64,000 nucleotides of DNA from Actinomycetota bacterium (GTDB taxonomy: Bacteria; Actinomycetota; UBA4738; HRBIN12), in the NCBI GenBank assembly GCA_046731295.1, contig JBKPKU010000054.1, positions 52,833 through 116,832 on the forward strand, in the 5' to 3' direction. A program made the position numbers and the translations under genes. A model generated the notes under the pieces. It had not been told where the DNA came from, did not search any database, and worked only from the letters and a program-made list of their open reading frames with translations. Of the stretch, positions 4,357 through 50,457 are shown piece by piece (the stretch's first letter is position 1; every line of letters begins with the position of its first letter).

Positions 4357-4374
4357 GGACCGCGAAGCGTTCGG

Positions 4375-4402
4375 ACGAAGGGGGGAGCCTTGTCCCCCCT
4401 TC
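4375..4402 (+). terminator. Perfect 11-bp stem hairpin (cgaagggggga-gccttg-tccccccttcg) just downstream of the permease gene
   Basis: Inverted repeat read directly from the sequence, 19 nt after the permease stop. No strong U-tract, which is common in high-GC actinobacteria. Confidence 0.4.
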
Positions 4403-4427
4403 GTCATCGCGTGCCATCATCGTCGCC

Positions 4428-4796: not shown

Positions 4797-4816
4797 ACCT
4801 GATCGCCGGCTGAGCG

Positions 4817-13710: not shown

Positions 13711-14750
13711 CGCACGCGGTCGGTGTGATCCGGGGCGACGGCACGGGTCCCGAGGTCATCGGGCAGGCCCTGCGCGTCCTGGACGCCGTGGCCGTTCCGG
13801 TCGAGCTCGTCGAGTTCGACCTCGGCGCCGAACGCTATCTGCGTACCAGCGAGGTGCTGCCCGACGACGAGCTGGCTCGGCTCCGCGAGATGGACGCGAT
13901 CCTGCTCGGCGCCGTGGGCGACCCCAGGGTCCGGCCCGGCGTGCTCGAACGCGATCTGCTGCTCCGGATCCGGTTCGATCTGGACCAGTACGTGAACCTG
14001 CGGCCGATCGTGCGCTACCCGGGCGTCGAGACCCTGATCCCCAGCCAGACCGAGGACGACGTGAACATGGTGGTTGTGCGGGAGAACTCCGAGGGTCTGT
14101 ACGTCGGCGCGGGAGGCTTCCACCGCAAGGGGACCGAGCACGAGGTGGCCGTCCAGGAGTCGATCAACACGCGGCACGGGGTCGAGCGCATCGTGCGATA
14201 CGCGTTCGAGCTGGCGAGGCGGCCGGAGCGGCGTCGCAAGCTGACGCTGGTCCACAAGACCAACGTGCTCACGTTCGCCGGCGATCTGTACCGGCGGGTC
14301 GTGGAGGAGGTGGGCGTCGCGTATCCCGATGTCGAGCACGACTACGTCCACGTGGACGCCGCGTGCATCTACTTCCTGGATCAGCCGTCGCGGTTCGATG
14401 TGATCGTGACCGACAACATGTTCGGCGACATCATCACGGACCTCGGCGCGATGATCCAGGGCGGGATGGGCATCGCGGCCGGCGGCAACATCAACCCGGC
14501 CGGCACGAGCATGTTCGAGCCGATCGGGGGCACGGCGCCCGACCACGCAGGCAGGGGCACGATCAACCCGCTGGCCGCGATCGGCGCGCTCCAGATGCTC
14601 CTGGCCCAGCTCGGCGAGGCCGACGCGGCCGACCGCGTGACCGCGGGCATCCGCGTCGCGTGCTCGAAGATGTCCTCCATGCGCGCCGGCGAGATGGGGT
14701 ACTCGACGCGGGAGGTCGGCGATCTCGTGCTCGAGGGGGCCACCGCATGA
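13707..14750 (+). CDS. leuB: 3-isopropylmalate dehydrogenase
   Basis: GTG start in a GTGA overlap with leuA; [10 protein letters not shown] ... [19 protein letters not shown] motifs of the isocitrate/isopropylmalate dehydrogenase family. Confidence 0.85.
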
Positions 14751-16360
14751 GCGTGGGCGCGGGCCTGCAGGTCGAGCTGTACGACACCACGCTGCGCGAC
14801 GGCGCGCAGGGCGCCGGCGTCTCGTACTCGATCGACGACCGCCTGCGGATCCTGCACAAGCTCGACCAGCTCGGGGTGCCGTTCGTCGAGGGCGGTTGGC
14901 CGGGTGCGAACCCGCGGGAGACCGAGTTCTTCCGGCTGGCGACCGGCGAGACGCTCAAGCACGCGACGCTCACGGCGTTCGGGATGACGCGCAAGGCGGG
15001 GGAGTCGGCGGGCTCGAGCGCCGTGCTCCGCGACCTGCTGGACGCCGGGACGCGGGTCGTGACCCTGGTGGGCAAGGCCTGGGACCTGCACGTCATCGAC
15101 GCGCTTCGGACGACCCTGGACGAGGGCGAGGCCATGGTGCGCGACTCGATCGGCTTCCTGCGCGAGCAGGGCCGGCGGGTCTTCTTCGACGCCGAGCACT
15201 TCTTCGACGGGTACCGCAGCGACCCCGCGTTCGCCCTGCGGATCCTCCGGACCGCCGAGGAGGCGGGCGCCGAGCGGCTGGTCCTGTGCGACACGAACGG
15301 CGGGATGCTGCCCCAGGAGGTGGCGCGCATCGTCGGCGAGGTGCGCCAGAGCGTCCGGCCGCCGCTCGGGATCCACGTCCACAACGATGCCGGCTGCGCG
15401 ATCGCCAACTCACTGATCGCCGTCGAGCACGGTGTTTATCAGGTGCAGGGCGTCGTGAACGGCTATGGGGAGCGGACCGGCAACGCGGACCTGATCCCGA
15501 TCGCCGCCAACCTCGTGCTGAAGATGGGCGCCGAGTGCCTGCCCGACGGGTCGCTCGAGCGGCTCACCGAGGTCGCCCACTACGTGGCCGAGGTCGCCAA
15601 CGTGGCGCCGGACGCGCGGCAGCCGTACGCGGGCCGGTACGCGTTCACGCACAAGGCCGGCCTGCACGCGAGCGGCGTCGAACGCGTCTCGCGCGCGTAC
15701 GAGCACGTCGAGCCCACCACGGTCGGCAACCGGCGCGGGGTGGTGGCCAGCGATCTCGGCGGCGGCGCCACGATCCGGATGAAGGGTCGGGAGTTCGGCG
15801 TCGAGCTCGACGGCGACGCGGTCACGCGCCTGCTGAGCGAGCTCAAGGAGCGCGAGGCCCGCGGCTACACGTTCGAGATCGCCGACGCCTCGCTCGAGCT
15901 GCTCATGCGGCGTGCCGACGGCTGGCGGCAGCCGTTCTTCCAGATCGACAGCTACCGCGTCCACGTCGAGGAGCGCGTCGGCGACGACGAGCCGCCCCTC
16001 GCCGAAGCCACGGTGAAGGTCGTGACGAAGGGCCGCCGGCACATCGAGAGCGCCGAGGGGCACGGCCCCGTGGGGGCCCTCGACAACGCGCTGCGCAAGG
16101 CGCTGGCCAACGACTACCCGGAGCTCGAGCACATCACGCTCGAAGACTTCCGGGTGCGCGTGCTGGACGAGACCCATGGCACAGGTGCGGTAGTCCGCGT
16201 CCTGATCGACACATCGAACGGTCGGCGCGAGTGGACCACCGTCGGCGTGTCCGAGAACATCATCGAGGCCTCCTGGGAGGCGCTCGTCGACGGCTACCTG
16301 TTCGGCCTGATCCACCCGCGCGAGAGCGAGGAGCCGCGAAGCGAGCCCGCGGTACGCTGA
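14747..16360 (+). CDS. cimA: (R)-citramalate synthase-like LeuA-family enzyme with C-terminal regulatory domain
   Basis: Second LeuA-family gene ([45 protein letters not shown]), 537 aa, with the cimA-type architecture. Its ATGA overlaps leuB. A paralogous leuA cannot be excluded. Confidence 0.75.
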
Positions 16361-28220: not shown

Positions 28221-29117
28221 TTACCCCAGGAGCGGCAGCACCTCGCCCATCGCACGGATCGAACGCTCCGTGACGGGGGAGAGCACGAGGACCGCCTCCT
28301 CGGCGCCGGCGTCTGCCAGCGCGCGCAGACGTTCGGCGACGAGGTCGGGCGAAGCGCCGTCGATCGGCACGATGTCATCGGTGATCGGGCGCTCGCCGGT
28401 GTCGGGGTCGAGCACGACCAGGGTGCACACGCTGCGCCGGATGTCGGCGGGGTCGCGGCCGACGTCCGTCGCGAGCGCCGAGATGCGCTCGTTCACGGGG
28501 GCGAGGCCCTCGGCCGTGTTGCCGAACCCGGTGTACCACGTGTTCCAGGCATCGACGTGCGGAAGCGCTATACGCAGGACGCGTTCGCCGGTCGATCCGA
28601 TCATGAGCGGCACGCGTCGCGATGGCTCCGGCAACAGGACTGCGTTCCGGACCTGCGAGAAGCGGCCCTCGAAGGTCACGTGCTCACCCGCGAGCAGCCG
28701 GCGGACGACCTCGAACGCCTCCTCGAACCGCGCGGCCCGTCGGTCGAATGGGATCCCGAACGCGCGGAACTCGGTCTCGTTCCACCCCGCGCCGATCCCG
28801 AACACGAACCGCCCGCCGCTTGCCTCGTCGATCGTGGCCGCCATCCGCGCGAGGATGCCCGGCGGGTGGAACGCCGTACAGGCGACCATCGGCCCGAGGC
28901 GGACGCGTTCGGTCGTTGCGGCCACCGCCGCGAGCGTGGTCCACGCGTCCCACGGACCGCGTTCGGGACGGCCGTCGTGGCGATACAGGAGGTGGTCACC
29001 GAGCCAGATCGAGTCGAACCCGACCTCCTCGGCCGCCCTCGCCATCGCGAGCAGCTCGGGCCAACGAACGTCGCGCTCTACCTCGGGGAGCTGGACGCCG
29101 ATCTGCAGCGGTCGCAC
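28221..29117 (-). CDS. LLM-class (luciferase-like) F420/flavin-dependent oxidoreductase
   Basis: TIM-barrel LLM motifs (GFDSIWLGDHLL ... RFVFGIGAGWNETEF ... PLMIGSTGERVLRIA). Confidence 0.8.
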   Translation of the reverse strand: MRPLQIGVQLPEVERDVRWPELLAMARAAEEVGFDSIWLGDHLLYRHDGRPERGPWDAWTTLAAVAATTERVRLGPMVACTAFHPPGILARMAATIDEASGGRFVFGIGAGWNETEFRAFGIPFDRRAARFEEAFEVVRRLLAGEHVTFEGRFSQVRNAVLLPEPSRRVPLMIGSTGERVLRIALPHVDAWNTWYTGFGNTAEGLAPVNERISALATDVGRDPADIRRSVCTLVVLDPDTGERPITDDIVPIDGASPDLVAERLRALADAGAEEAVLVLSPVTERSIRAMGEVLPLLG

Positions 29118-31050: not shown

Positions 31051-32739
31051 ATGAGAAGATGCGCGCTCTTCTCGCTCGTCGCCCTGGGCCTGTTCGTGGC
31101 CCTGGCACCGCCGGCCCAGGCGGTGACCGATGCCCGTGTGACGGGCGACGATACGGCTGGCAGCTACCAGCTGGCCGACGGCGGCCAAGACGAGACGATG
31201 ACCAGGTGCAGCGAGGGTCGCCGCCAGCAGAACGAGCCCTCGATCGCGGTCGACCCGTCGAATACCGCCGTGGTGGTCGCCGGCGCCAACGACTACTGCG
31301 CCTCGATCGTGAACAACGAGGTGTGGGCCGGCTTCTACCGTTCGGAGGACGGCGGGGCGACCTGGACGAACAGCCTGGTTCCGGGCTACCCGGACGACAC
31401 ATCCGATTCGGGAGAGGCGTCACCGGTCCACGGCACGTGCGGCGCGGCCGGTGACCCGACGCAGGCGTTCGACGCCGATGGCAATCTGTTCTACGGGTTC
31501 ATCTGCTTCAACCGGGCGAAGCCGATCAACGGCGGCGTCTACGTCGCCCGGTACTCGGATCACGGCGCCGCGTACGACCAGACCGTCCTGGTGAAGAGGG
31601 GGACACCATCGGGGCTGTTCACGACCGGGCTGTTCCAGGACAAGATCAACCTCGCCGTGGACCAGACCGACGGTGATTCCTCCGGCAACGTCTACGTCGC
31701 CTGGTCGCAGTACACGGGGTTCGCCGGGACCAACAACGCGGTGGTGTTCTCTCGTTCCGTCGATCACGGGGATTCGTTCTCCACGCCGAGGAAGGTCACG
31801 CCCGTGGAGCACGGGACGGCGTCGTTCGCCGACCTGGCGGTCGGACCCGACGGGACGATCTACCTCACCTACCTGACGTACCCGTCGAGCTCGCGGCCGA
31901 CCGCGGACGTCTGGTTGTTGTCCTCCACGGACGGCGGCGACTCGTTCGGGCCGCCGGTCCACGTCGACTCGGTCGAGCTGTTCGACTCGAACCAGTTCGC
32001 GGGCGCGACGGGGACGGTGGACTGCGGGGACGGGCCGTTCGCATGCGACAGCGGATTCACCTTCTCGCGGTTCTTCACCAACTCGGCCGTGACGGCGGAC
32101 GAGACGGGCGTGCACGTCGTGTGGGCCTCGGAGCTGCCGAGCGGGCAGAACCAGGTGTTCGTCCGAAACTCGCCCGACGGCCAGGCCTTCGAGGACGATC
32201 CGATCCTGGTGGACGAACAGGAGGCAGGACACCAGTGGTTCCCGGACGTCGCCTCGGCGGACGGGACGATCTCGGTGATCTTCTACGACTCGCGGGCCGA
32301 TCCCGCCTACGACCCGGATCGCCCGCCGGGCAACGACGCCGACGGCGTGAACTCCGGCGACGTGGTGAACGCCTTCGTCGCCCAGTCGACCGACGGTGGC
32401 CTGACCTGGATCGAGAATCAGGTGAGCGCCGCGGGGAGCAACTTCGGCTGGGAAACGCACGGGTCACGACGCGTCGGGTTCTGGGGCGACTACCTGTACG
32501 TGTCGGCGGTGCCGGGAGCCGTCAACGTCGCATGGACCGACTCCCGGGACCTGGTGCCCGGTGACGACCCACGGGAGACCGGGGCCGATGATGACGAGGA
32601 CGGGTTCGACGTGTTCCAGGACAATTGCGTCTACGACCCGAACGACATCAACGCGCCGGCCTACACGACGCCGACCATCGACGACCCCTGCCTGGACGAG
32701 GGGGGTCTGGACCAGAACATCTACGACGCGCGTCTGTAG
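31051..32739 (+). CDS. Secreted BNR/Asp-box repeat protein (sialidase-like beta-propeller), paralog 1
   Basis: Signal peptide MRRCALFSLVALGLFVALAPPAQA; repeated S-x-D-G-G-x-T-W/F Asp-box motifs (SEDGGATWT, SVDHGDSFS, STDGGDSFG, STDGGLTWI); RBS AAAGGAGGGA. Confidence 0.7.
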   Translation: MRRCALFSLVALGLFVALAPPAQAVTDARVTGDDTAGSYQLADGGQDETMTRCSEGRRQQNEPSIAVDPSNTAVVVAGANDYCASIVNNEVWAGFYRSEDGGATWTNSLVPGYPDDTSDSGEASPVHGTCGAAGDPTQAFDADGNLFYGFICFNRAKPINGGVYVARYSDHGAAYDQTVLVKRGTPSGLFTTGLFQDKINLAVDQTDGDSSGNVYVAWSQYTGFAGTNNAVVFSRSVDHGDSFSTPRKVTPVEHGTASFADLAVGPDGTIYLTYLTYPSSSRPTADVWLLSSTDGGDSFGPPVHVDSVELFDSNQFAGATGTVDCGDGPFACDSGFTFSRFFTNSAVTADETGVHVVWASELPSGQNQVFVRNSPDGQAFEDDPILVDEQEAGHQWFPDVASADGTISVIFYDSRADPAYDPDRPPGNDADGVNSGDVVNAFVAQSTDGGLTWIENQVSAAGSNFGWETHGSRRVGFWGDYLYVSAVPGAVNVAWTDSRDLVPGDDPRETGADDDEDGFDVFQDNCVYDPNDINAPAYTTPTIDDPCLDEGGLDQNIYDARL

Positions 32740-40035: not shown

Positions 40036-41646
40036 ATGCGTCGAACGTCTGCGTTCGCCGTCGCCCTCGCACTGCTGACCTCCGCGATCGGGCTCGTACC
40101 GACGGCCGTGCGTGCGGGCGGCGTTCCCTTGTGGGTCAAGCACGTGCGGAACTACCCGGGAGGCATCTCGGCGGGCGTTCGCGCCCGCCTGGTCGCGACC
40201 TCGATCGACACGTCGGGCGGGGCGTCGGCTGCGGCCCTGCAGCCCGTTCCGGGGAACGACGTGCAGATGAACGACGACTGCGACCCTCCGCTCCCGCAGA
40301 ACGAGACCTCGGTCGCCGTCAACACGGGCAACCAGCTGAACGCGGTCGCCGCCGCGAACGATTACTGCGGCGATGGCTTCTGGATCGGCTTCACGAGGGA
40401 CGGGGGAGATACATGGACGAGCATCTTCAAGGACCCCAAGCTCTCGCTTGATTCGCTGTCCCTGGCCGAACGACGGTGCTTCGGCTCCGATCCCTCGGTC
40501 GTGTACAGCACGCGTGACTCGGCGTTCTACCTGTCGACCCTGTGCTTCTCACCGACCAATCCCAGCTCGGAGGTGCAGGTCTGGCGTTCAAACGATGGCG
40601 GCGCGACGTGGACCGATTCGCTGAACGCGGCTACGGCGATCACCAACATCGCGGTCGACGGCACGATCGACGCATCGGTCTTCTACGACAAGGAGCTCCT
40701 GGCCGTCGACGACAACCCGGCCAGCCCTCACTTCGGCAGGCTCTACCTGACGTTTATCAAATTCCACATGAGCTCGCCTTCGGCCCGCGCCGATTACTGC
40801 CCCGTGCAGCTCGCCTATACCGATCCGAGCGGTTCTCCCGACACATGGACCTGGTCGCACACAGCCCTGGTGCCAGACGATCCGGGTGCGAAGGGCCGGG
40901 GCCCCTCGGCCAATCAGTGGGCGATGCCCGTGGTCGACGAGACGGGGGCCCTCGACGTCGCTTACGCGATCGAGGAATGCAACACGGCGTTCGATCCCGC
41001 CATGTTCTTCACGCGATCCACCAACGGCGGCGCAGGATTCTCCGCGCCCGTCCGGATCGACGGCCCCGGTCAGTTCGCGGACAACCCCAGCCGGCAGGAC
41101 GTGCTGCCCGGCAAGCACCATGCGAGCATCGGGCTCTCGCCCTCGCTCGCGTTCGATCCCACCAGGAACAGGCTCCTGTTCGCGTACCAGAACAACATCG
41201 ATCGCGCCACCTCCGATGCCGACATCTCCCTCCAGACGTCGGACGACTTCGGAGCCACGTGGTCCGAGGCCTCGAACGTTGCGGCGACGGCAACCGGAAA
41301 CGCCGCACCCAATGACCAGTTCTTCCCCTGGCTCGCGGTCGACCAGAGTACGGGGGCCGCCTTTGCCATCTGGTACGACAATCGCAACGATCCGACGAAT
41401 CACCTGATCGAGACGTTCATCGGGGTGTCGACCGATGGAGGGGAGACATGGGAGAACGAGCTGATCTCCGACGTCGCCTGGAACCCGGGTGATGCGTTCT
41501 TCTCGTGCGGGTGCTTCATCGGCGATTACAACGCCATCGCGATGGGGGGTTCGCTCCTGTACCCGGTGTGGACCGATGCCCGGAACTCACCGGGGCGGCC
41601 GCTCGGGCAGGCCGACATCTTCACCGATGTCATGAGCCTGACGTAG
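40036..41646 (+). CDS. Secreted BNR/Asp-box repeat protein (sialidase-like beta-propeller), paralog 2
   Basis: Signal peptide MRRTSAFAVALALLTSAIGLVPTAVRA; Asp-box motifs (TRDGGDTWT, SNDGGATWT, STNGGAGFS, SDDFGATWS, STDGGETWE); RBS AAGGAGG. Collinear similarity to paralog 1 (QNEPSIAV/QNETSVAV ... GDY ... WTDSRD/WTDARN). Confidence 0.7.
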   Translation: MRRTSAFAVALALLTSAIGLVPTAVRAGGVPLWVKHVRNYPGGISAGVRARLVATSIDTSGGASAAALQPVPGNDVQMNDDCDPPLPQNETSVAVNTGNQLNAVAAANDYCGDGFWIGFTRDGGDTWTSIFKDPKLSLDSLSLAERRCFGSDPSVVYSTRDSAFYLSTLCFSPTNPSSEVQVWRSNDGGATWTDSLNAATAITNIAVDGTIDASVFYDKELLAVDDNPASPHFGRLYLTFIKFHMSSPSARADYCPVQLAYTDPSGSPDTWTWSHTALVPDDPGAKGRGPSANQWAMPVVDETGALDVAYAIEECNTAFDPAMFFTRSTNGGAGFSAPVRIDGPGQFADNPSRQDVLPGKHHASIGLSPSLAFDPTRNRLLFAYQNNIDRATSDADISLQTSDDFGATWSEASNVAATATGNAAPNDQFFPWLAVDQSTGAAFAIWYDNRNDPTNHLIETFIGVSTDGGETWENELISDVAWNPGDAFFSCGCFIGDYNAIAMGGSLLYPVWTDARNSPGRPLGQADIFTDVMSLT

Positions 41647-41782
41647 CGAGATCCCGACCGAGATCGGCATGCGGGGTCGACGCTCGGCGTCGGTTGAGGC
41701 CTTCCCTCTCGCGCTCCCCTCGGCGGGTGACTACCATCCTGGGAGCGGCCGAGGGCCGCGCGACGCGAACGAGGAGGTTCCG

Positions 41783-42622
41783 ATGACGATCGTGAAGGCT
41801 GCGCTCCTGCAGACCGACTGGGCGGGCGACCAGGAGTCCATGATCGACAAGCACGAGGAGGCCGCCCGGGAGGCCTCGGCCCAGGGTGCGGAGGTCATGT
41901 GCTTCCAGGAGCTGTTCTACGGGCCGTACTTCTGCCAGGTCCAGGACACCGAGTACTACAGCTACACCGAGCCGATCCCCGACGGCCCCACGACCAAGCG
42001 CTTCCAGAGCGTCGCCAAGGAGCTCGGCATGGTGATGGTGCTGCCGATGTACGAGGTCGTGCAGTCCGGGCTGTACCACAACACCGCGGCGGTGATCGAC
42101 GCGGACGGGACATACCTGGGCAAGTACCGCAAGCAGCACATCCCGCAGGTCAAGGGGTTCTGGGAGAAGTTCTACTTCGCGCCGGGCACCGGCGGGTACC
42201 CGGTGTTCGAGACCGCGGTCGGCAAGGTCGGCGTGTACATCTGCTACGACCGGCACTTCCCCGAGGGCTGGCGCATCCTGGGCCTGCACGGCGCCGAGAT
42301 CGTGTTCAACCCATCGGCCACGCACCGCGGGCTCTCCGAGTACATCTGGCGCCTGGAGCAGCCGGCGGCCGCGGTGGCGAACATGTACTACGTCGGCGCG
42401 ATCAACCGTGTCGGCATCGAGCCACTGGGCGACAACGACTTCTACGGGCAGAGCTACTTCGTCGACCCCGAGGGACAGTTCGTGGGCGAGGTGGGCGATG
42501 CGTACAAGCCCGAGCTGATCGTGCGCGACCTGGACCTGGACAAGATCCGCGCGGTGCGCGACCGCTGGGCGTTCTACCGGGACCGCCGGCCGGACGCCTA
42601 CGACCCGATCGTCGCTCGCTGA
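41783..42622 (+). CDS. Carbon-nitrogen hydrolase (nitrilase superfamily; N-carbamoyl-amine/beta-ureido-type amidohydrolase-like)
   Basis: Catalytic E-K-C triad context (CFQELFYGPYF, RKQHIP, VYICYDRHFPE). RBS GAGGAGG. The upstream part of the ORF was rejected. Confidence 0.8.
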   Translation: MTIVKAALLQTDWAGDQESMIDKHEEAAREASAQGAEVMCFQELFYGPYFCQVQDTEYYSYTEPIPDGPTTKRFQSVAKELGMVMVLPMYEVVQSGLYHNTAAVIDADGTYLGKYRKQHIPQVKGFWEKFYFAPGTGGYPVFETAVGKVGVYICYDRHFPEGWRILGLHGAEIVFNPSATHRGLSEYIWRLEQPAAAVANMYYVGAINRVGIEPLGDNDFYGQSYFVDPEGQFVGEVGDAYKPELIVRDLDLDKIRAVRDRWAFYRDRRPDAYDPIVAR

Positions 42623-42651
42623 GCGAACCCGCAACGGGGAGGGGGCTCCGC

Positions 42652-43668
42652 ATGGACATCGGCGTGGTGTTGCAGACCACCCCACCGAGCGCACGGGTCG
42701 TCGATCTCGCCGTCCGGGCCGAGACCTACGGGTTCAGCCACGTGTGGACGTTCGACAGCCACATCCTGTGGCAGGAGCCGTTCCCGATCTACACGCAGAT
42801 CCTGGCGAACACCCGCAACGTCACGGTCGGCCCGATGGTCACGAACCCGGCGACCCGTGACTGGACGGTGACGGCGAGCATCTTCGCGACCCTGAACGAG
42901 ATGTTCGGCAACCGGACGATCATCGGGATAGGGCGCGGCGACTCCGCGGTGCGGGTGATCAACGGGAGGCCCACCACACTGGCCACCCTGCGCGAGTGCG
43001 TGCACGTGGTGCGCGAGCTCGCCAACGGCCGGGGCGCCGAGTACAAGGGCTCGACGATCCGATTCCCATGGGCGGGCAAGAGCCGGGTCGACATCTGGGT
43101 GGCCGGCTACGGCCCGAAGGCCCTCAAGCTGATCGGCGAGATCGGCGACGGATTCATCCTGCAGCTCGCGGATCCGCACATCACGGCTTGGACCATCGGG
43201 GCCGTCCGCAAGGCAGCCGAGGAGGCCGGGCGCGACCCGAACGCGATCGCGATCTGCGCGGCGGCGCCGGCCTACGTGGGCGACGACCCCGCACACGCCC
43301 GCGACCAGTGCCGCTGGTTCGGCGGCATGGTCGGGAACCACGTCGCCGACATCGTCGCCCGCTACGGCGAGCACTCCGAGGTGCCCGACGAGCTGACCGC
43401 GTACATCAAGGGCCGCCAGGACTACGACTACAACGAGCACGGACAGGCGGGGAACGTCCACACGCAGTTCGTGCCGGACGAGATCGTCGACCGCTTCTGT
43501 GTGCTCGGGCCGTGGCGGGAGCACGTCCGCCGGCTCGAGGAGCTGCATGACCTCGGCGTCACGCAGTTCGCCGTGTACCTTCAGCACGACGCCAAGGACG
43601 AGACCCTTCAGGCCTACGGCGAGAAGGTCCTGCCGGCGATCGCCGAGAAGGTGCTCGCGAAGACTTGA
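42652..43668 (+). CDS. LLM-class F420-dependent oxidoreductase
   Basis: LLM TIM-barrel motifs (FSHVWTFDSHILW ... IIGIGRGDSAVRV ... IWVAGYGPKALKLIGEIGDGFILQ ... DRFCVLGP). Confidence 0.8.
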   Translation: MDIGVVLQTTPPSARVVDLAVRAETYGFSHVWTFDSHILWQEPFPIYTQILANTRNVTVGPMVTNPATRDWTVTASIFATLNEMFGNRTIIGIGRGDSAVRVINGRPTTLATLRECVHVVRELANGRGAEYKGSTIRFPWAGKSRVDIWVAGYGPKALKLIGEIGDGFILQLADPHITAWTIGAVRKAAEEAGRDPNAIAICAAAPAYVGDDPAHARDQCRWFGGMVGNHVADIVARYGEHSEVPDELTAYIKGRQDYDYNEHGQAGNVHTQFVPDEIVDRFCVLGPWREHVRRLEELHDLGVTQFAVYLQHDAKDETLQAYGEKVLPAIAEKVLAKT

Positions 43669-44531
43669 CGCGTGTTCGGCGGGTCTGGACGCTCGCGCTC
43701 GCCCTGCTGCTGGTCGCCGCCGTCTGGGAGCTCTACAAGGCGGTCGGGCCGCAGGACGGCGGGACGGTGTTCGGGTGGACGATCCTCCCGCGCGCGAACG
43801 ACACCGCCATGCCCCACGTGTGGGAGATGTTCTCGCGTTACGCGCAGCCTGAGAACCGCGCCTCGGACACCCCGATCCTGATCGTGGTGTTGCAGGGTGC
43901 GTGGTTCACGTTCCGCATCGCGCTGGCCGGGCTCGCGCTGGGGACCGCGGTAGGGCTCGCGCTCGCCATCCTGATGGCCCGCTACAAGGTGGTCGAGCGC
44001 GGTCTCCTGCCGTACCTGGTCCTGTCGCAGACCGTCCCGCTGATCGCCCTCGCGCCGCTGGTGGTGAGCTGGGGTGGCCGGTTGCACGTGGGCGCTTTCG
44101 AGTGGCCCCGGTGGCTCTCGGCGGCCGTGCTGGGCGCGTTCCTCGCGTTCTTCCCGGTCGCCGTCGGGACGCTGAAGGGCCTGACCTCGACGCCCCCGGC
44201 CTCGCTCGAGCTCATGGACTCCTACGCGGCGTCGTGGCGCCAGACGTTGTTCAAGCTGCGGTTTCCGGCCGCGCTGCCGTATGTGGTCCCGGCGCTCAAG
44301 CTCGCAGCCACGGCCTCGGTCGTCGGCGTCATCGTGGCCGAGATCTCGACCGGCCTGGCCGGCGGGATCGGGAGGCTGATCATCGAGTACGCGCGGGAGG
44401 CGACGAGCGATCCGGCGAAGGTGTTCACGGCGGTGTTCGGCGCGGCGGCCCTCGGGCTGGTGATGTTCGCGATCGTCACCGTGGTCGACCTGGTGGGGAT
44501 GCGCCATCGCCCCCGCGAGGCGACAGAATGA
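43665..44531 (+). CDS. ABC transporter permease (NitT/TauT/SsuC family)
   Basis: 6-TM BPD_transp_1 protein with an EAA-like loop; TTG start overlaps the LLM stop. Confidence 0.8.
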   Translation: MTRVRRVWTLALALLLVAAVWELYKAVGPQDGGTVFGWTILPRANDTAMPHVWEMFSRYAQPENRASDTPILIVVLQGAWFTFRIALAGLALGTAVGLALAILMARYKVVERGLLPYLVLSQTVPLIALAPLVVSWGGRLHVGAFEWPRWLSAAVLGAFLAFFPVAVGTLKGLTSTPPASLELMDSYAASWRQTLFKLRFPAALPYVVPALKLAATASVVGVIVAEISTGLAGGIGRLIIEYAREATSDPAKVFTAVFGAAALGLVMFAIVTVVDLVGMRHRPREATE

Positions 44532-45358
44532 GCACGTCCGATGGCGCGAACGCCGTCGAGGTCCGGGGCCTGTCGAAGGTATTCAACGCCGGTCGCCCGG
44601 ACGAGGTGGAGGCGCTCGTCGGCATCGACCTGGTGATCCGGCCGGGCGAGTTCGTGTCGCTGATCGGCCCGTCCGGGTGCGGCAAGTCGACCCAGCTCCG
44701 GCTGATCGCCAACCTGACCGAGCCCACGACCGGCGAGATCCTGGTCAATGGCAAGGCGGCCCGGGCCGCCAGGCTCGACCAGGACTACGGGATGGCGTTC
44801 CAGCAGGCGGGGCTGTTCGAGTGGCGGTCGGTCACCAAGAACGTGGAGCTGCCTCTCGAGCTCAAGGGGTGGGACAAGGGGAAACGGCGGGCGCGCGCGC
44901 TCGAGATGCTCGACCTCGTCAAGCTGTCGGAGTTCGCCGACCACTTCCCCTGGCAGCTGTCGGGCGGCATGCAGCAGCGGGTGGCGATCGCCCGCTCGCT
45001 GGCCGCACACCCGCCGCTCTTGCTGATGGACGAGCCGTTCGGCGCGCTGGACGAGATGACGCGGGAGCACATGCAGACGGAGCTCCTGCGCATCTGCGGC
45101 GAGACCTCCAGCACCGTGGTGTTCGTCACGCATTCGATCCCCGAGGCGGTGTTCCTGTCGACGAGGGTGGTCGTGATGTCGCCGAGGCCCGGACGGATCA
45201 CCGACGTGATCGACGTGGAGCTCGGCCCGGCGCGCACGGTGGACACGCGGGAAACCGAGCCCTTCTTCGCCACGGTGACCGAGGTGCGAGAGGCGCTCCG
45301 CGGCATCCAGCCGGCGGACGTCGAGCCCGACATCGAGCAGATGGCCGAGGAGCTGTGA
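44528..45358 (+). CDS. ABC transporter ATP-binding protein (NitT/TauT family)
   Basis: Walker A GPSGCGKST, signature LSGGMQQRVAIARSL, Walker B LLLMDEPFGALD. ATGA overlap with the upstream permease. Confidence 0.85.
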   Translation: MSTSDGANAVEVRGLSKVFNAGRPDEVEALVGIDLVIRPGEFVSLIGPSGCGKSTQLRLIANLTEPTTGEILVNGKAARAARLDQDYGMAFQQAGLFEWRSVTKNVELPLELKGWDKGKRRARALEMLDLVKLSEFADHFPWQLSGGMQQRVAIARSLAAHPPLLLMDEPFGALDEMTREHMQTELLRICGETSSTVVFVTHSIPEAVFLSTRVVVMSPRPGRITDVIDVELGPARTVDTRETEPFFATVTEVREALRGIQPADVEPDIEQMAEEL

Positions 45359-46146
45359 GTCGCCGGCCCCGGCACCTGTTCACGCTCGTTTGGCCGCCGC
45401 TGCTGTTCGGGATGCTGTTCCTCCTGGTGTGGGAGATGGCCGTCAAGGTCTTCGACTTCCAGCCGTACTTCCTGCCGGCCCCATCGGCGATCTGGAACGC
45501 GTTCCGAACCAACACGACCCTCATCTGGGAGGCGACCAGGGTCTCCGGCCTGAACGCCCTCATCGGGCTGCTCGTCGGGACCGCGATCGGCGTGGCGATG
45601 GCGTTCCTGCTCGCCCGGTTCCGTCTCGTCGACGATCTGCTGACGCCGCTCGCCGTCTCGCTCAACGCGATCCCGATCTTCGTGCTGGTCGCCGTGTTCA
45701 ACAACATGTACCCGGTCACCAGCGAGGTGCCGCGGCGGCTGATGGTCACGCTGGTCGTGTACTTCATCGTCCTGGTCAACGTCGCTCGGGGGCTGCGTGA
45801 GGTCGGCGCCGTCTACCTGGACCTGATGCGCTCATACGCGGCGAGCGACGTGACGATCCTTCGCAAGGTTCGCGTGCCGCACGCGGTGCCCTACCTGTTC
45901 ACCGCGCTCAAGATCGCCGCACCCGCCTCGGTGATCACCGCGTTCGTGTCGGAGTACTTCGGCGGCGTGCAGAACGGGCTCGGCAGCCGGATCGTGAGCA
46001 ACATCGCGCTGTCGAACAACGCCGAGGCCTGGGCGTACGTCCTGGGCGCGTGTCTGCTGGGCCTGGCCTTCTTCCTTGTCGCCCTGGTGCTCGAGGCGGT
46101 GGCCACGCCCGGCGGCCTCGGCGCCCGGGAGCGCGATAGGGCATGA
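45355..46146 (+). CDS. ABC transporter permease (second NitT/TauT-family permease)
   Basis: GTG start in a GTGA overlap with the ATPase stop. Hydrophobic 6-TM profile with a binding-protein-dependent transport signature region. Confidence 0.8.
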   Translation: MSRRPRHLFTLVWPPLLFGMLFLLVWEMAVKVFDFQPYFLPAPSAIWNAFRTNTTLIWEATRVSGLNALIGLLVGTAIGVAMAFLLARFRLVDDLLTPLAVSLNAIPIFVLVAVFNNMYPVTSEVPRRLMVTLVVYFIVLVNVARGLREVGAVYLDLMRSYAASDVTILRKVRVPHAVPYLFTALKIAAPASVITAFVSEYFGGVQNGLGSRIVSNIALSNNAEAWAYVLGACLLGLAFFLVALVLEAVATPGGLGARERDRA

Positions 46147-46202
46147 TGTCGGGTCGCACGGAGGCTTCGTCGGGGCGACGGCCCCGGGGGAAGGGGGCCC
46201 AC

Positions 46203-47378
46203 ATGAAGGGGAAGCGGCTCATGTTCCTCGCCGCCGGCGTGCTCACGCTCTCGCTGGTCGCGGCGGCGTGTAGCAACGACGAGGAGGGCGGCGGCGGATC
46301 GACCGCTGGCGGTGGCGCCGCCGGCGGGGGCGGCAACTGCTCGACCACAGACCAGGTGTCGCTGCAGCTTCAGTGGTTCATCCAGGCGCAGTTCGCCGGC
46401 TACTACGCCGCACAGGACCAGGGCTATTACGCCGACCAGTGCCTCGACGTGACGATCGTCGAGGGTGGGGTGGACATCGTCCCGCAGCAGCAGCTCGCCG
46501 ACGGCGCCGTGGACTTCGCGCTCGCGTGGGTGCCCAAGGCACTCGCGACGCGCGAGGCCGGGGCCAACATCGTGGACATCGCGCAGGTGTTCCAGCGGTC
46601 CGGGACGCTGCAGGTCTCGTTCGCGGACGCGGGCATCACGACGCCGGCGGACTTCGCCGGCAAGACCATCGGCAACTGGGGGTTCGGCAACGAGTACGAG
46701 ATCTTCGCCGCCCTCGCGCAGGCCAACCTCGACCCGGCCACGGACGTGACGCTCGTCCAGCAGGACTTCGACATGTCCGGGCTGCTCTCGGGCGACATCG
46801 ACGCGGCCGAGGCGATGATCTACAACGAGTACGCCCAGGTGCTCGAGACCGTGAACCCGGATACCGGCGAGCTGTACCAGCCGTCCGACCTCAACGTGAT
46901 CTCCTACGAGGAGGACGGGGTCGGGATGCTCCAGGACGCGATCTGGGCCGACGGAGAGCGTCTCGCCAACGACGACGCGTACCGCGACGTCGCCGTCCGG
47001 TTCGTCACGGCCTCGCTGCAGGGCTGGGCCTACTGCCGCGACAACGTGCAGGCATGCACGGACCTGGTCGTGGCGCAGGGCTCCAAGCTGGGCGCCAGCC
47101 ACCAGCTGTGGCAGATGAACGAGATCAACCAGTTGATCTGGCCCGCGCCTGACGGCGTGGGCGTGATCAACCAGGAGGCATGGGACCGCACGGCCGAGAT
47201 CGCGCAGAACACGCCCAACCTGGAGGGCACCACGGTGCTGACGGCACCGCCCGACGCCGGCGCCCACACCAACGACATCATCAACGAGGCCCTGGCGAAG
47301 CTGCAGGACCTCGGTGTGGACACGACCGGCGACACGTACCAGCCGATCGAGGTCACGCTGAACGAGGGCGGGGCCTAG
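46203..47378 (+). CDS. ABC transporter substrate-binding lipoprotein (NMT1/THI5-like, NitT/TauT family)
   Basis: MKGKRLMFLAAGVLTLSLVAAAC lipobox followed by a Gly-rich linker; periplasmic-binding fold type 2 body. Start chosen at the lipoprotein signal (46203) rather than at ORF start 46143. Confidence 0.75.
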   Translation: MKGKRLMFLAAGVLTLSLVAAACSNDEEGGGGSTAGGGAAGGGGNCSTTDQVSLQLQWFIQAQFAGYYAAQDQGYYADQCLDVTIVEGGVDIVPQQQLADGAVDFALAWVPKALATREAGANIVDIAQVFQRSGTLQVSFADAGITTPADFAGKTIGNWGFGNEYEIFAALAQANLDPATDVTLVQQDFDMSGLLSGDIDAAEAMIYNEYAQVLETVNPDTGELYQPSDLNVISYEEDGVGMLQDAIWADGERLANDDAYRDVAVRFVTASLQGWAYCRDNVQACTDLVVAQGSKLGASHQLWQMNEINQLIWPAPDGVGVINQEAWDRTAEIAQNTPNLEGTTVLTAPPDAGAHTNDIINEALAKLQDLGVDTTGDTYQPIEVTLNEGGA

Positions 47379-47391
47379 GGCAGCAGGTGGC

Positions 47392-47418
47392 GGGCGGGCC
47401 GCCCTCGGCGGCCCGCCC
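47392..47418 (+). terminator. GC-rich 12-bp perfect-stem hairpin (gggcgggccgcc-ctc-ggcggcccgccc) after the binding-protein gene
   Basis: Inverted repeat read directly, 14 nt after the stop. No U-tract. May be an intra-operon attenuator or RNA-stability element, since the downstream genes are co-directional. Confidence 0.35.
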
Positions 47419-47440
47419 GTCCCCCACCTATCATCGGCGG

Positions 47441-48379
47441 ATGGCGCCGCTGCTCCTGCTCAACGCGGACGACGTCCGCGACCTGATCGACCTCCCCTCA
47501 CTGTTCGAACCACTCGAACACGCGCTGCGCGAACTCAGCCGCGGCACCACGTCGGTGCCGCCCAGAACCGTGGCCCGCGCCCCGAACGGTTTCCTCGGGT
47601 CGATGCCCGGCTACCTTCCCGGGACCGCGCTCGAGGCCAAGCTGGTGGCCGTCTTCCCCGACAACCACGACCACGGCCTCCCTTCCCACCAGGCGCTGAT
47701 CGCGCTGTTCGATCCCGAGACCGGGATCCCGCGGTGCGTCATGGACGGCACGGTCGTGACGGCGGTTCGGACGGGTGCGACCTCGGCCGTCGCCGCCCGC
47801 GCGCTCGCGCGGCCGAACCCGCGGACCCTCGCGATCCTGGGTGCCGGCGTGCAGGGGCGCTCGCATCTGAACGCCTTCATACAGGTGTTCGACCCCTCGG
47901 AGATCCGGATCGCCTCGCGCGACCCGGACCACGCCACGGCGCTCGCCGAGGCCGACCCTCGGGCGGGCACCACGACGTTCGAGGAGGCGGTCCGAGGCGC
48001 CGACGTCGTCTGCTGCTGCACGGACGCGGACGAGCCCGTGATCGCGCGCGCCTGGCTGTCGCCGGGCGTGCACGTGAGCTCGGTGGGGGTGGGGGAGGAG
48101 GTCGACCCCGAGACCGTGCGGGACGCATCGGTGTTCGTCGAGTGGCGCGGCGCCGCCGAGAACCCGCCGCCGACGGGCTCGGCCGAGCTCCAGGGGCTCG
48201 ACCCGGCGACCCTGGTCGAGATCGGACAGGTGCTCGCGGGCGATCACCCGGGCCGAACCTCCGACGACGAGCTCACGCTGTACAAGGCCACGGGTCACGC
48301 GGTGGAGGACGCGGCCGCGGCCCGGCAGGTGTTCGACCGTGCGGTCGCGCAGGGCCGCGGCCAGACGTTCGAGCTGTGA
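47441..48379 (+). CDS. Ornithine cyclodeaminase / mu-crystallin family protein
   Basis: OCD-family Rossmann motif (LAILGAGVQGRSHL) and conserved C-terminal region. 312 aa from MAPLLLLNADDVRD. Confidence 0.8.
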   Translation: MAPLLLLNADDVRDLIDLPSLFEPLEHALRELSRGTTSVPPRTVARAPNGFLGSMPGYLPGTALEAKLVAVFPDNHDHGLPSHQALIALFDPETGIPRCVMDGTVVTAVRTGATSAVAARALARPNPRTLAILGAGVQGRSHLNAFIQVFDPSEIRIASRDPDHATALAEADPRAGTTTFEEAVRGADVVCCCTDADEPVIARAWLSPGVHVSSVGVGEEVDPETVRDASVFVEWRGAAENPPPTGSAELQGLDPATLVEIGQVLAGDHPGRTSDDELTLYKATGHAVEDAAAARQVFDRAVAQGRGQTFEL

Positions 48380-49348
48380 CCGGTCCCGGGATCGCGCACG
48401 CGCCGCTCACGCTCGCGGAGATCGAACGGGCGCGCGAACGCATCGCCGGCGGCGCGATCCGAACGCCGCTCGTGCGCCTCGATGCGGACGTCCCGGAGAC
48501 CGAGATCTACCTGAAGCTCGAGGTGCTGCAGCCGATCGGCTCGTTCAAGATCCGCGGCGCCGGCTCGCTCATCGAGTCCCTGTCCGAGGAGGAGTTGGCC
48601 GAGGGAGTGTGGACGACGAGCGCGGGCAACATGGCGCAGGCGGTGGCCTGGTACGCGCGCCGCAAGGGTGTCCTGGCGACCGTCGTGATGCCCGAGACCG
48701 CACCCGACGCGAAGCGTTCGGCCGCCGAGCGGCTGGGCGCGACCGTGATCCCGGTCGGCTTCGACGAGTGGATCAGCGTCTTCCGGTGGCGGACGTACCC
48801 CGGGACGCGCGGCGCGTTCGTGCACCCGTTCAGCGACCGGCGCGTCATGGCCGGCAACGGGACGATCGGGCTCGAGGTGCTCGAGGACCTACCCGACGTC
48901 GACGCCGTCGTGATCCCGTACGGCGGCGGCGGCCTGAGCTGCGGGATCGCGTCGGCCATCAGGGCTCGCTCGCCGGCAACGCGCGTGTACGCGGCGGAGG
49001 TCTCGACCGCGGCTCCCCTGGCGCCGTCGCTCGAGGCCGGCGAGCCCGTCGAGATCGACTACACGCCGAGCTTCGTCGACGGGATCGGCGCGCCGGTCGT
49101 CTTCCCCGAGATGTTCGCGCTGGCGCGGACCCTGCTCGACGGCTCGCTCGTCGTAGACCTGGATGCGGCCGCCGACGCCGTCCGGCACCTCGCGACGCGG
49201 GCGCACGTCGTCGCGGAGGGGGCCGGCGCCGTCCCGGTCGCCGCGGCCCTCGCCGGCATGGCCGGCACGGGCAGGATCGTGGGCGATCGTCTCGGGCGGT
49301 GGCATCGACGCCTCCGAGCTCGCCGGCATCCTCTCGGCAGGTGGCTGA
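48376..49348 (+). CDS. PLP-dependent threonine dehydratase/serine racemase-like enzyme (PALP fold), interrupted by an apparent 1-nt frameshift near 49281
   Basis: GTG start in a GTGA overlap with OCD. PLP-lysine motif SFKIRGA; GGGGL loop. The C-terminus continues in another frame (ORF 49163-49348 ends ...IVSGGGIDASELAGILSAGG). Removing one G from gtgggcg restores GRIVAIVSGGGID. Confidence 0.7.
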
Positions 49349-49383
49349 ACCCGAGCGGCTAGGCTTCGGAGCGATGCGCGTCG

Positions 49384-49919
49384 ATCGCGATGCCCACCCG
49401 ATCCAGACCGAGCGGCTCGTGCTCCGGCGCTCGGTCCCGGAGGATGCCGAGACGATCTCGGCCTACCGAAGCGACCCGAACGTGAACGCCCAGCAGGGCT
49501 GGGATCGCACCGATGTCGACAGCGTGCGCGCCGACATCGTCGAGATGAGCCGCCGCTCCCCGGGCGAGCCGGGCGGGTGGGTCCAGTACACGGTCGAGGA
49601 CCGCGAGAGCGGACGCGTCGTCGGGGATGTCGGCCTGTCGCCGGCCGACGGCGAGCCGAACGTGATCAAGGTGGGCTACACGATCGCGCCCGAGTTCCAG
49701 GGGTCTGGCTTCGCGACCGAGGCGATCGCTGCGCTCGTCGACTACGCGTTCGACACGCTGGGCGCCGAGGCCGTGCGAGCACACGCGAGCGCGCTCAATG
49801 CGCCGTCGATCCGCGTCGCCGAGAAGGTCGGCATGCGCCTGATCGAGAAGCGCGCGTATCGGGACGGCGACGAGGTCTGGTACGGCGTCCGGTACGAGGT
49901 TCGCCGCGACGACCGCTGA
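49384..49919 (+). CDS. GNAT family N-acetyltransferase (RimJ/RimL-like)
   Basis: 178 aa from MRVDRDAHPIQTERLVLR with acetyl-CoA-binding motif VGYTIAPEFQGSGFATEAIAALVDYAF. Confidence 0.75.
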
Positions 49920-49924
49920 GCGGG

Positions 49925-50113
49925 TCAGTCCGAAGAGCCGCGTGCCTTGAACTCGTCGCAGATGTCCTCGCGGTGGATCACGCCCCGGACGAACCGACAT
50001 CCGCCGATCGAGAGCCTCGGGAACATGAACTTGCACTCGCCGCAGCTGAACTTCGGGTTCTCGGCCTTGCGGTAGTTCGCCTGCTGCTTCGAGAGCCCCT
50101 GCACGTTCGGCAC
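49925..50113 (-). CDS. Hypothetical 62-aa Cys-rich protein (CxxC...C...C, possible zinc ribbon)
   Basis: GTG start preceded by GAGGGAGG RBS. FSCGECKFMFPRLSIGGCRFVRGVIHREDIC. Lies 14 nt downstream of the Rho_N-like gene on the same strand. Confidence 0.45.
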   Translation of the reverse strand: MPNVQGLSKQQANYRKAENPKFSCGECKFMFPRLSIGGCRFVRGVIHREDICDEFKARGSSD

Positions 50114-50127
50114 GGCGATGGCCTCCC

Positions 50128-50457
50128 TCAGTCGCGATCCACGGCGCGCTGCAACTCCGCCTTGGTCATCTTAGACCGGCCCCTGATGTGCTTGCTCCTG
50201 GCCTCCTCGTACAGCTGCGCCTTGGTGCGTCCGCCGGGTCCCGAGTGGGAACGGAGTCCGCCGCGACGACCGGACGAGATGTCGGTGACCGAGGCTCGGC
50301 TGGCCTCCCGCGCCTCGCCCGAGCGGGCTCGCTCCTTGTTCACGGTGCGGGCCGCGATCTCCTCGGCCGTGTCCTCGTCGCGGCCCTGCTCCTTCAGGCC
50401 CTGCTTGATGTGCTCGAACTGCCGTTCGCGCTTGGCGCTCCAGGCCTCCTGCGGCAT
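50128..50457 (-). CDS. Small protein with C-terminal Rho_N-like motif, paralog 2
   Basis: 109 aa from MPQEAWS. C-terminal KAQLYEEARSKHIRGRSKMTKAELQRAV motif matches the 27129-27407 protein. The upstream 180 codons of the ORF were rejected as non-protein-like. Confidence 0.55.
   Translation of the reverse strand: MPQEAWSAKRERQFEHIKQGLKEQGRDEDTAEEIAARTVNKERARSGEAREASRASVTDISSGRRGGLRSHSGPGGRTKAQLYEEARSKHIRGRSKMTKAELQRAVDRD

Follow-up and report, generated by a model that had tools for sequence, protein, structure and literature searches.

A composite nine-gene block in Actinomycetota: a probable trimmed pyrimidine operon with a candidate F420-type ring reductase, joined to a lineage-specific cassette

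The reductive pyrimidine (Pyd) pathway consists of the dihydropyrimidine dehydrogenase PydA, the dihydropyrimidinase PydB, and the beta-ureidopropionase PydC, and is extended by a beta-alanine aminotransferase and (methyl)malonate-semialdehyde enzymes. It serves here as the main point of comparison for a block of nine genes in a 64,000-nucleotide stretch of contig JBKPKU010000054.1 from an Actinomycetota bacterium, which is referred to as the window. The block encodes a nitrilase-superfamily CN-hydrolase, a luciferase-like (LLM-class) oxidoreductase, a four-gene NitT/TauT-type ABC importer, a member of the ornithine cyclodeaminase (OCD) family, a threonine-dehydratase-like pyridoxal phosphate (PLP) enzyme (PALP), and a GNAT acetyltransferase (Table 1). 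The original prediction, made from the window, had treated all nine as one unassigned pathway for a cyclic, ureido- or amidine-type nitrogen compound. On balance, the block is read here as two transcription units end to end, namely a trimmed pyrimidine operon in which the LLM would be the ring reductase, and a lineage-specific cassette. The parts of this reading differ in strength: the composite architecture is very probable and the assignment of the first unit to pyrimidines is likely, while the role of the LLM as ring reductase is tentative and close to, or slightly short of, an even chance.

The neighbourhoods of the LLM gene were compared over 80 loci, one genome per species, with LLM identities of 68-88% (L numbers denote the loci and contigs compared). 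They stem from Acidimicrobiia, Kineosporia, Georgenia, Cellulomonas, Agromyces, Arthrobacter, Frankia, Nakamurella, Flexivirga, and many soil and freshwater metagenome-assembled genomes (MAGs), and were analyzed by tblastn with the window proteins and by clustering of all neighbour open reading frames (ORFs). Upstream genes were counted over the 53 loci in which 4.5 kb or more precede the LLM, and downstream genes over the 53 in which as much follows it. The CN-hydrolase was encoded upstream of the LLM in 51 of 53 loci, and a 470-aa gene stood between the two in 43. This gene was identified as dihydropyrimidinase by TIGR02033 (549 and 538 bits, cut-off 393), and a 495-aa gene occurring in 23 of 53 loci as the CoA-acylating methylmalonate-semialdehyde dehydrogenase gene mmsA by TIGR01722 (701 bits, cut-off 448). 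A class-III aminotransferase and a MocR-type regulator (GntR plus aminotransferase fold) followed with 16 and 13 of 53 loci, respectively, and ABC importer genes were found 3' of the LLM in about 34-36 of 53. The fullest cluster, in Ilumatobacteraceae, runs from a reverse-strand MocR gene through CN-hydrolase, dihydropyrimidinase, mmsA, LLM, permease, ATPase, permease, and substrate-binding protein to a reverse-strand aminotransferase gene. A Streptomyces megaplasmid carries CN-hydrolase and aminotransferase genes, then ORFs without useful Pfam matches, and then dihydropyrimidinase and LLM genes. In many loci the LLM gene lies directly 3' of the dihydropyrimidinase gene.

As dihydropyrimidinase, mmsA, and aminotransferase share the cluster elsewhere, genes 1-6 are read as a reductive pyrimidine pathway. 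The earlier view that the combination of hydrolase, LLM, and NitT/TauT importer points to an unassigned pathway did not hold, since these three additional enzymes in sister clusters mark the Pyd pathway. The predicted substrate class, a cyclic ureido nitrogen compound, fits the first half of the block, and pyrimidines and hydantoins both stood on the list of proposed growth tests; the reading of the block as a single pathway did not hold. Most actinomycetotal clusters resemble Pyd systems in holding the TIGR02033 dihydropyrimidinase, a beta-ureidopropionase-like CN-hydrolase, an omega-aminotransferase, and the TIGR01722 mmsA, and would follow the same logic, in which the ring is reduced and opened, the product decarbamoylated, and the beta-amino acid disposed of. 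Unlike Pyd systems, they hold a Mer-like TIGR03842 LLM, presumably F420-dependent, instead of a dihydroorotate dehydrogenase (DHOD)-like/Fe-S PydA, and they add a dedicated NitT/TauT ABC importer. The locus of the window also differs by lacking PydB, aminotransferase, and mmsA. The dihydropyrimidinase gene is gone from between hydrolase and LLM in the window, L003-L008, L011-L013, L015, and L018-L021, and is retained in the relatives L010, L014, L017, and L040, with LLM identities of 80-83%.

Canonical PydA, the DHOD-like flavin mononucleotide (FMN)/Fe-S enzyme, was found neither among the Pfam-scanned genes of the window nor among the families that recur as neighbours in the 80 loci, and the LLM was the sole oxidoreductase constant across the clusters. 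For these two reasons the LLM is proposed as the uracil/thymine reductase. It matched TIGR03842, a "hypothetical equivalog" family, over profile positions 1-329 of 329 with 577.9 bits (cut-off 295.45), so that the luciferase-like, probably F420- or FMN-using family named in the original prediction was right and can be narrowed to this family. The nearest solved structure was the F420-dependent Mer (1z69, E 9e-36, full length); the F420 enzymes Adf (1rhc) and Fgd (3b4y) were also among the structure matches, with Mer the closest. The LLM matched 22 NCBIfam families, the strong ones all being F420-class LLMs, and coenzyme F420 is its probable cofactor. No F420-biosynthesis gene was found within the window. 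Mer (1z69, 1f07) shares with the LLM the TIM-barrel class and the presumed cofactor; however, the LLM scored below the Mer family cut-offs (138 vs 276 and 128 vs 349 bits), and it occurs in a pyrimidine-catabolic context with no tetrahydromethanopterin (H4MPT) pathway.

Two further systems offer a comparison, and the second of them, itself only predicted, is a close precedent. RutA, the FMN-dependent LLM pyrimidine monooxygenase of the Rut system, is likewise an LLM-fold enzyme that acts first on the ring in a nitrogen-scavenging operon. However, the RutA model was absent from the 22 NCBIfam families matched by the LLM, the partners here are hydrolytic Pyd enzymes and not RutB-F, and the predicted chemistry is reductive and not oxygenolytic. 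In reductive uric-acid clusters of Chloroflexota, a putative F420 "luciferase-family" enzyme (PF00296) replaces, by gene neighbourhood, the PydA-like UacX (PF01180) or the YgfK reductase beside a ring-opening amidohydrolase (PMC12507026). The substrates there are xanthine and uric acid, the phylum is another, the partners include SsnA, HyuA, and YgeW, and the function is predicted only (PMC12507026). In the literature outside subscription journals, no link was found between F420 or TIGR03842 and pyrimidine catabolism, and a 2021 F420 review mentions pyrimidines only with photolyase and FO synthesis and lists no pyrimidine-catabolic role. The view that the block had no pathway-level annotation was upheld.

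A word-index search with the LLM returned at least 8000 proteins, the actinobacterial orthologues being 68-94% identical, and a representative-library search returned a compact family of 420 clusters at E<=1e-30. Proteobacterial members with 41-44% identity close cofG-cofH-cofD-cofC-cofE-npdG operons on plasmids of Paracoccus alcaliphilus (L091 4587-11002) and Leisingera caerulea (L092 4510-11002), where the entire plasmid-borne F420 pathway may exist to serve the TIGR03842 enzyme. This placement adds to the family membership and the closeness to Mer as indirect support for the use of F420. On the P. alcaliphilus plasmid, a NitT/TauT-like ABC system lies directly 3' of the TIGR03842 gene. A relationship of these ABC genes to the importer of the window was considered and rejected beyond the family level, with 38% identity for the ATPase, 25-30% for the permeases, and an undetectable similarity for the binding protein.

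The CN-hydrolase carries the Glu/Lys/Cys motifs of a nitrilase-superfamily amidohydrolase (FQELF, YRKQH, YICYDR), as had been predicted. Its nearest solved structures are the N-carbamoylputrescine amidohydrolase 5h8i and the beta-ureidopropionases 2vhh (Drosophila) and 6ftq (human), all of them decarbamoylases. With 248.8 bits against AguB (TIGR03381) it stays under the equivalog cut-off of 410.25, and it clears no other NCBIfam equivalog cut-off; the PydC role rests on the conserved adjacency to dihydropyrimidinase elsewhere. It is most likely a beta-ureidopropionase that would convert N-carbamoyl-beta-alanine to beta-alanine, CO2, and NH3. Across the lineage of the window the hydrolase is 95-98% identical and hence under selection. 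As this selection acts in a lineage without dihydropyrimidinase in the cluster, the ring-opening enzyme of the organism is probably encoded elsewhere in the genome. Upstream of the hydrolase, TCGCGC followed by TA(C/G)CAT were the sole conserved blocks in an alignment of 17 otherwise diverged upstream regions (window 41690-41740), and they could represent a promoter or an operator. The cluster of the window has no regulator gene, while Acidimicrobiia clusters have a divergent MocR-type gene.

The ATPase of the importer had TauB, SaoA, and NtrCD type families as top NCBIfam matches, each under its cut-off. Supplementing the original prediction, the binding protein was found to be a lipoprotein. 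Its nearest solved structure is the formylaminopyrimidine-binding ThiY (3ix1, E 4e-14 over ~190 residues), and its ligand is probably a pyrimidine or dihydropyrimidine. ThiXYZ systems similarly combine an NMT1/THI5-fold binding protein, whose ligand is a pyrimidine, with a NitT/TauT-type permease and ATPase. In contrast, the similarity to ThiY is distant only, and the importer of the window has two permease genes and a catabolic context other than thiamin salvage.

The two halves of the block are separated by a gap of 62 nt between the binding-protein and OCD genes. The G+C-rich hairpin that had been noted there at 47392-47418 is real and does divide the halves, with a perfect 12-bp G+C stem (47392-47403 / 47407-47418) and the loop CTC, extendable to 47389-47421. 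Fold prediction gave a 13-bp stem and -53 kcal/mol for an 81-nt stretch (z = -2.2 vs shuffles). In almost every locus examined, a GGGCGGG...CCCGCCC hairpin comes after the stop of the binding-protein gene, whether the OCD-PALP-GNAT trio is present or not. It is therefore regarded as the pyrimidine operon's ancestral 3' end. The suggested role in differential expression did not hold in the sense of a device specific to this lineage, as the hairpin also occurs in loci without the trio. A terminator consensus scan placed its single terminator-like site within the BNR gene upstream, and shuffled sequences gave more sites. Ahead of the OCD gene, CCTATCAT followed by 6-7 nt and then ATG/GTG is kept in L001-L005, L008, and L082 though the surrounding sequence differs, and no Shine-Dalgarno sequence precedes 47441. 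This suggests that TATCAT may be the -10 box of a leaderless mRNA. An Rfam scan of the entire window identified zero known RNA elements, and a riboswitch or leader is thus unsupported in either intergenic region.

Genes 7-9 follow the binding-protein gene only in the lineage of the window (L001-L005, L008, L082-84, and about 20 soil metagenome contigs in which the OCD is 76-88% identical). In the similarly distant relatives L006, L011, L012, L016, and L021, the six-gene unit is followed by unrelated genes. The claim of a single nine-gene pathway was therefore not sustained by the neighbourhood comparison: genes 1-6 are widespread together across Actinomycetota, and all nine genes occur together in one soil lineage only.

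The OCD protein had the Pyr2C reductase 6t3e, the ketimine reductase 4bv8, and the alanine dehydrogenase (AlaDH) 1omo as nearest solved structures, not cyclodeaminases, and stayed under every NCBIfam cut-off. The PALP, nearest to TdcB, IlvA, and serine racemase among solved structures, carries the GSFKIRGA PLP-lysine motif, in agreement with its earlier description as a SFKIRGA-type enzyme. Its orthologues (66-71% identical) occur in three context types, preceded by OCD, preceded by RidA, or alone. An overlapping OCD gene lies 5' of PALP in unrelated neighbourhoods in L085, L087, L090, and L094-96, and the pair was found separate from the cluster in at least five other genomic contexts, including L104, where it is 81-83% identical and lies beside two phosphofructokinase genes, a threonine-aldolase-type lyase, and a molybdoenzyme. 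OCD-PALP is thus an independent two-gene cassette. In L086 (7571-8960), L088/89 (L088 7483-8966), and L098 (5526-6975), a RidA/YjgF-like gene takes the OCD position 5' of a PALP gene with 67-68% identity, and in L097 the PALP orthologue stands alone. RidA and OCD alternate 5' of PALP and were never observed together. RidA clears the enamine/imine product of such dehydratases, and the alternation in the same position means that the OCD protein may reduce the dehydratase-derived imine, which by analogy suggests a dehydratase and imine-reductase couple. Directly 5' of stand-alone OCD-PALP pairs, a protein of 209-249 aa without Pfam match is encoded in L085 (6386-7129), L090 (6138-6887), and L094 (4443-5072), and it may be a third component of the cassette.

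The same pairing of a PLP threonine-dehydratase-like enzyme with an OCD/mu-crystallin-family enzyme is known from BhcB/BhcD (beta-hydroxyaspartate dehydratase and iminosuccinate reductase) and from EutB/EutC (hydroxyectoine dehydratase and OCD-type reductase), so that in each the imine made by the one enzyme is reducible by its partner. However, no Bhc aldolase or aminotransferase genes and no Doe or Ehu genes lie near the pair of the window, which also stays below the equivalog cut-offs of BhcB (NF045641, 176.6 vs 550), BhcD (NF045643, 141.4 vs 500), EutB (PRK07476, 230.7 vs 413; TIGR02991, 197 vs 413), and EutC (TIGR02992, 154 vs 472). It likewise stays below the cut-offs of the diaminopropionate pair SbnA/SbnB, with 58 vs 350 for the SbnA family and 124 vs 327 for the SbnB family.

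About 18 contigs of the lineage keep PALP intact; the gene is cleanly deleted in L099 (940-1030) and L110 (2830-2990), where only a 3' remnant remains between OCD and GNAT, and frameshifted in L003 (15734-16679, a MAG) and in the window. At 49281-49283 the window reads GGG where L001 and L082 read GG, an extra G that adds to the original description. It frameshifts the last ~26 codons and removes the conserved ...IVAIVSGGGID... tail; the intact frame would stop at 49348. Three other single-nucleotide differences separate the window from L001, and the extra G could reflect a fault in the assembly or a genuine mutation that turns the gene into a pseudogene. Where PALP is lost or broken, the identity of the pyrimidine genes remains at 95-98%, and some strains seem able to do without the PLP enzyme. 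The GNAT gene is joined to OCD-PALP only in the lineage of the window. A PALP-GNAT fusion protein (P0152), considered as a Rosetta-stone link, was rejected as an artefact, its junction being a frameshifted PALP tail.

Gene content, family memberships, synteny counts, and the conservation of the hairpin and the motifs are observed; what the LLM reduces, its use of F420 here, the ligand of the transporter, the promoters, and the second unit's chemistry are proposed from sequence. In unit 1 (41783-47378), bounded by the conserved promoter-like element and the conserved GC hairpin, the ThiY-like lipoprotein and the NitT/TauT importer would take up uracil and thymine or their dihydro forms. The LLM would reduce the pyrimidine ring with F420H2, a step that is normally that of PydA, a dihydropyrimidinase, its gene presumably elsewhere in the genome here, would open the ring, and the CN-hydrolase would act as beta-ureidopropionase and free beta-alanine, CO2, and NH3. 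Unit 2 (47441-49919) is a lineage-specific addition, and its own TATCAT element probably drives a leaderless transcript. Its PLP beta-eliminase would dehydrate or deaminate a hydroxy-amino acid to an enamine/imine, which the OCD-type ketimine reductase would reduce with NAD(P)H instead of leaving it to hydrolysis, following the logic of BhcB/BhcD, and the GNAT may acetylate the product. In its broader form, the proposal is that TIGR03842 LLMs are F420H2-dependent uracil/thymine reductases replacing the flavin/Fe-S PydA throughout Actinomycetota and that, separately, OCD-PALP is a general alternative to the pairing of dehydratase with RidA. This extension is possible but has somewhat less than an even chance.

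Several points weigh against this reading. The groups attacked by known F420-dependent LLMs are mostly C=N, C-OH, or C=O, and activated C=C bonds are better known as targets of F420H2-dependent reduction by FDOR enzymes. A 155-aa PNPOx-like protein of FDOR fold is encoded beside the cluster in 7 Acidimicrobiia loci, and the proteobacterial TIGR03842 genes have no adjoining Pyd genes, so that the substrate may vary within the family. The top NCBIfam and PDB matches of the CN-hydrolase are N-carbamoylputrescine amidases. Dihydropyrimidinase was not found by tblastn in the 64-kb window and is missing from the clusters of the closest relatives, which leaves the pathway gapped as encoded. At the junction, the hairpin has no U-tract and does not fit the pattern of U-tailed terminators, although tail-less terminators are reported in high-G+C actinobacteria. 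A simple sigma-70 consensus scan, which is uninformative for a genome of such high G+C, found no promoter in the region, and there may be read-through from unit 1 into unit 2.

The explanation that competes best, though it is unlikely, accepts the Pyd cluster and denies the LLM the ring-reducing step. Uracil would then be reduced by a canonical PydA, or by an F420 enzyme of the FDOR type, from another place in the genome, and the LLM would, for example, use F420 to reduce malonate semialdehyde to 3-hydroxypropionate in the manner of PydE/RutE, or act on an unrelated imported compound. The search for PydA covered the window and the 80 loci, which leaves room for such an enzyme, and the lack of Pyd neighbours in Proteobacteria fits a different substrate. 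F420 enzymes of the LLM class also include alcohol, aldehyde, and sugar dehydrogenases, with Adf and Fgd among the matches, but the LLM is nearer to Mer than to either. A semialdehyde reductase would moreover be redundant in the 23 loci that keep the LLM and already encode the CoA-acylating semialdehyde dehydrogenase, and the LLM is kept where no aminotransferase is nearby, including in the window. Its position directly after dihydropyrimidinase in many loci also speaks for the ring. The FDOR-fold gene adjoins the cluster in just 7 of about 53 loci. It lies just 5' of the MocR/CN-hydrolase genes (neighbour family 10; L047 4123-4590 and six other Acidimicrobiia loci), and its product could be a second F420 enzyme and an alternative candidate for ring reduction.

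Considerably less probable is the original view of a single nine-gene pathway for one cyclic or ureido nitrogen compound, in which OCD, PALP, and GNAT would process the product of hydrolase and LLM. The nine-gene order is tight, co-directional, and stable over about 25 contigs of one soil lineage, and the distance from the binding-protein gene to OCD is short; yet the hairpin and the -10-like element sit between the two halves. The lineage with the trio has no dihydropyrimidinase, aminotransferase, or mmsA in the cluster, and its downstream chemistry could differ; speculatively, an OCD-type alanine dehydrogenase could release NH3 from the alanine formed by beta-alanine:pyruvate transamination. 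Against this, fold-type II PLP beta-eliminases work on alpha-amino acids and not on beta-alanine, the OCD-PALP pair is an independent cassette elsewhere, even at the 81-83% identity of L104, and PALP is deleted (L099, L110) or frameshifted (L003, window) while the Pyd genes remain 95-98% identical. A correlation of dihydropyrimidinase loss with trio gain was also considered and rejected: the sister genomes L006, L011, L012, L016, and L021 lack both, and the two events are therefore unlinked.

The least probable reading is that unit 1 serves not pyrimidines but different N-carbamoyl or hydantoin substrates (agmatine-derived N-carbamoylputrescine, 5-substituted hydantoins, or N-carbamoyl amino acids). 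In its favour, the top NCBIfam match of the hydrolase is AguB, its top solved relative is a plant N-carbamoylputrescine amidohydrolase, TIGR02033 enzymes also include D-hydantoinases, and the window has no dihydropyrimidinase. Against it, the AguB score is far under the cut-off (249 vs 410 bits), no agmatine deiminase is encoded nearby, mmsA and omega-aminotransferase in the clusters fit the uracil and thymine products beta-alanine and beta-aminoisobutyrate and not D-amino acids or putrescine, and the binding protein resembles a pyrimidine binder.

The reading of the block as a trimmed pyrimidine operon followed by a cassette builds on secure gene calls. As the window has ~70% G+C, genes were called by frame analysis of third-position G+C (GC3) and by a simple caller based on coding likelihood. 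Both returned nine plus-strand genes covering 41783-49919, and independent Joint Genome Institute (JGI) calls on the near-identical metagenome contig Ga0677050_0000005 (L001) gave the same nine, in line with the predicted co-directional set. All nine domain assignments were backed by Pfam matches (E 1e-17 to 1e-69), and the four predicted boundary overlaps are present in the sequence as 4-nt start/stop overlaps (TTGA at 43665, ATGA at 44528, GTGA at 45355, and GTGA at 48376). The predicted limits of the block also stood, its neighbours all being unrelated: a secreted BNR-like protein, a cytidylate-kinase-like protein, OsmC, DUF4386, and a PfkB kinase. The remaining genes of the window are housekeeping genes and genes of sugar and amino-acid metabolism.

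Table 1. Genes and candidate signals of the nine-gene block (window coordinates)
Feature	Position	Strand	Evidence or remark
-10-like hexamer TACCAT, candidate promoter of the first unit	41732..41737	+	~45 nt 5' of CN-hydrolase start; TCGCGC further upstream
CN-hydrolase, nitrilase-superfamily N-carbamoyl-amine amidohydrolase	41783..42622	+	PF00795 2.8e-63
TIGR03842-family LLM-class oxidoreductase, candidate uracil/thymine reductase in the place of PydA	42652..43668	+	Pfam Bac_luciferase; TIGR03842 profile match
ABC importer permease 1, NitT/TauT type	43665..44531	+	PF00528 1.1e-20; TTGA overlap with LLM stop
ABC importer ATPase	44528..45358	+	PF00005 1.6e-31; ATGA overlap
ABC importer permease 2	45355..46146	+	PF00528 2.5e-17; GTGA overlap
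Lipoprotein substrate-binding protein, NMT1/THI5 (ThiY-like)	46203..47378	+	PF09084 9.3e-35; lipobox LVAAAC
G+C-rich stem-loop at 3' end of first operon, putative terminator or mRNA stabiliser	47389..47421	+	Fold prediction, position conserved
-10-like hexamer TATCAT, candidate promoter for a leaderless OCD-PALP-GNAT transcript	47429..47434	+	6 nt before OCD ATG
OCD/mu-crystallin-family NAD(P)H enzyme, ketimine-reductase / archaeal alanine-dehydrogenase type	47441..48379	+	PF02423 9.5e-69
PALP, fold-type II PLP serine/threonine-dehydratase-like beta-eliminase	48376..49362	+	PF00291 1.8e-68; 3' end frameshifted
GNAT acetyltransferase (Acetyltransf_3, RimJ/RimL-like)	49374..49919	+	PF13302 1.6e-29; solved-structure matches weak

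Further features were observed in the window outside the block. Two genes, at 31051-32739 (+) and 40036-41646 (+), encode secreted proteins that carry weak BNR/sialidase-like repeats and may be paralogues; the latter lies directly 5' of the cluster, and the same position is kept in L007. Between GNAT and OsmC, at 49925-50457 (-), lie two short ORFs (62 and 109 aa) without Pfam match, and their position is kept in L001 and L082. A second, unrelated luciferase-like (PF00296) gene at 28221-29117 (-) stands beside peptidase S51 and 5'-3' exonuclease genes. At 2662-8157, an amino-acid permease, a DAO and GCV_T fusion (dimethylglycine/sarcosine-oxidase-like), and a choline/ethanolamine-kinase-like APH protein are grouped and may form a choline or methylated-amine catabolic module. 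Two LeuA/HMGL-like genes (12160-13710 and 14747-16360) lie on either side of leuB in an ilvBNC-leu cluster, and the second of them may encode a citramalate synthase.

What would be new in unit 1 is a Pyd variant with an F420-type LLM in the place of PydA and a dedicated ABC importer, without PydB in cis in this lineage. For annotation, the lesson is that a nine-gene "operon" turned out to be a conserved operon plus a passenger cassette, told apart by cross-genome comparison. If the LLM is the ring reductase, clusters having PydB and PydC without PydA would be explained, since the LLM would supply the ring reduction, and a function would be assigned to a highly conserved "hypothetical equivalog" family of at least 8000 proteins. 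F420 would then be required for reductive pyrimidine catabolism in a very large group of Actinomycetota from soil and fresh water, which would give this cofactor a role in core nucleotide catabolism.

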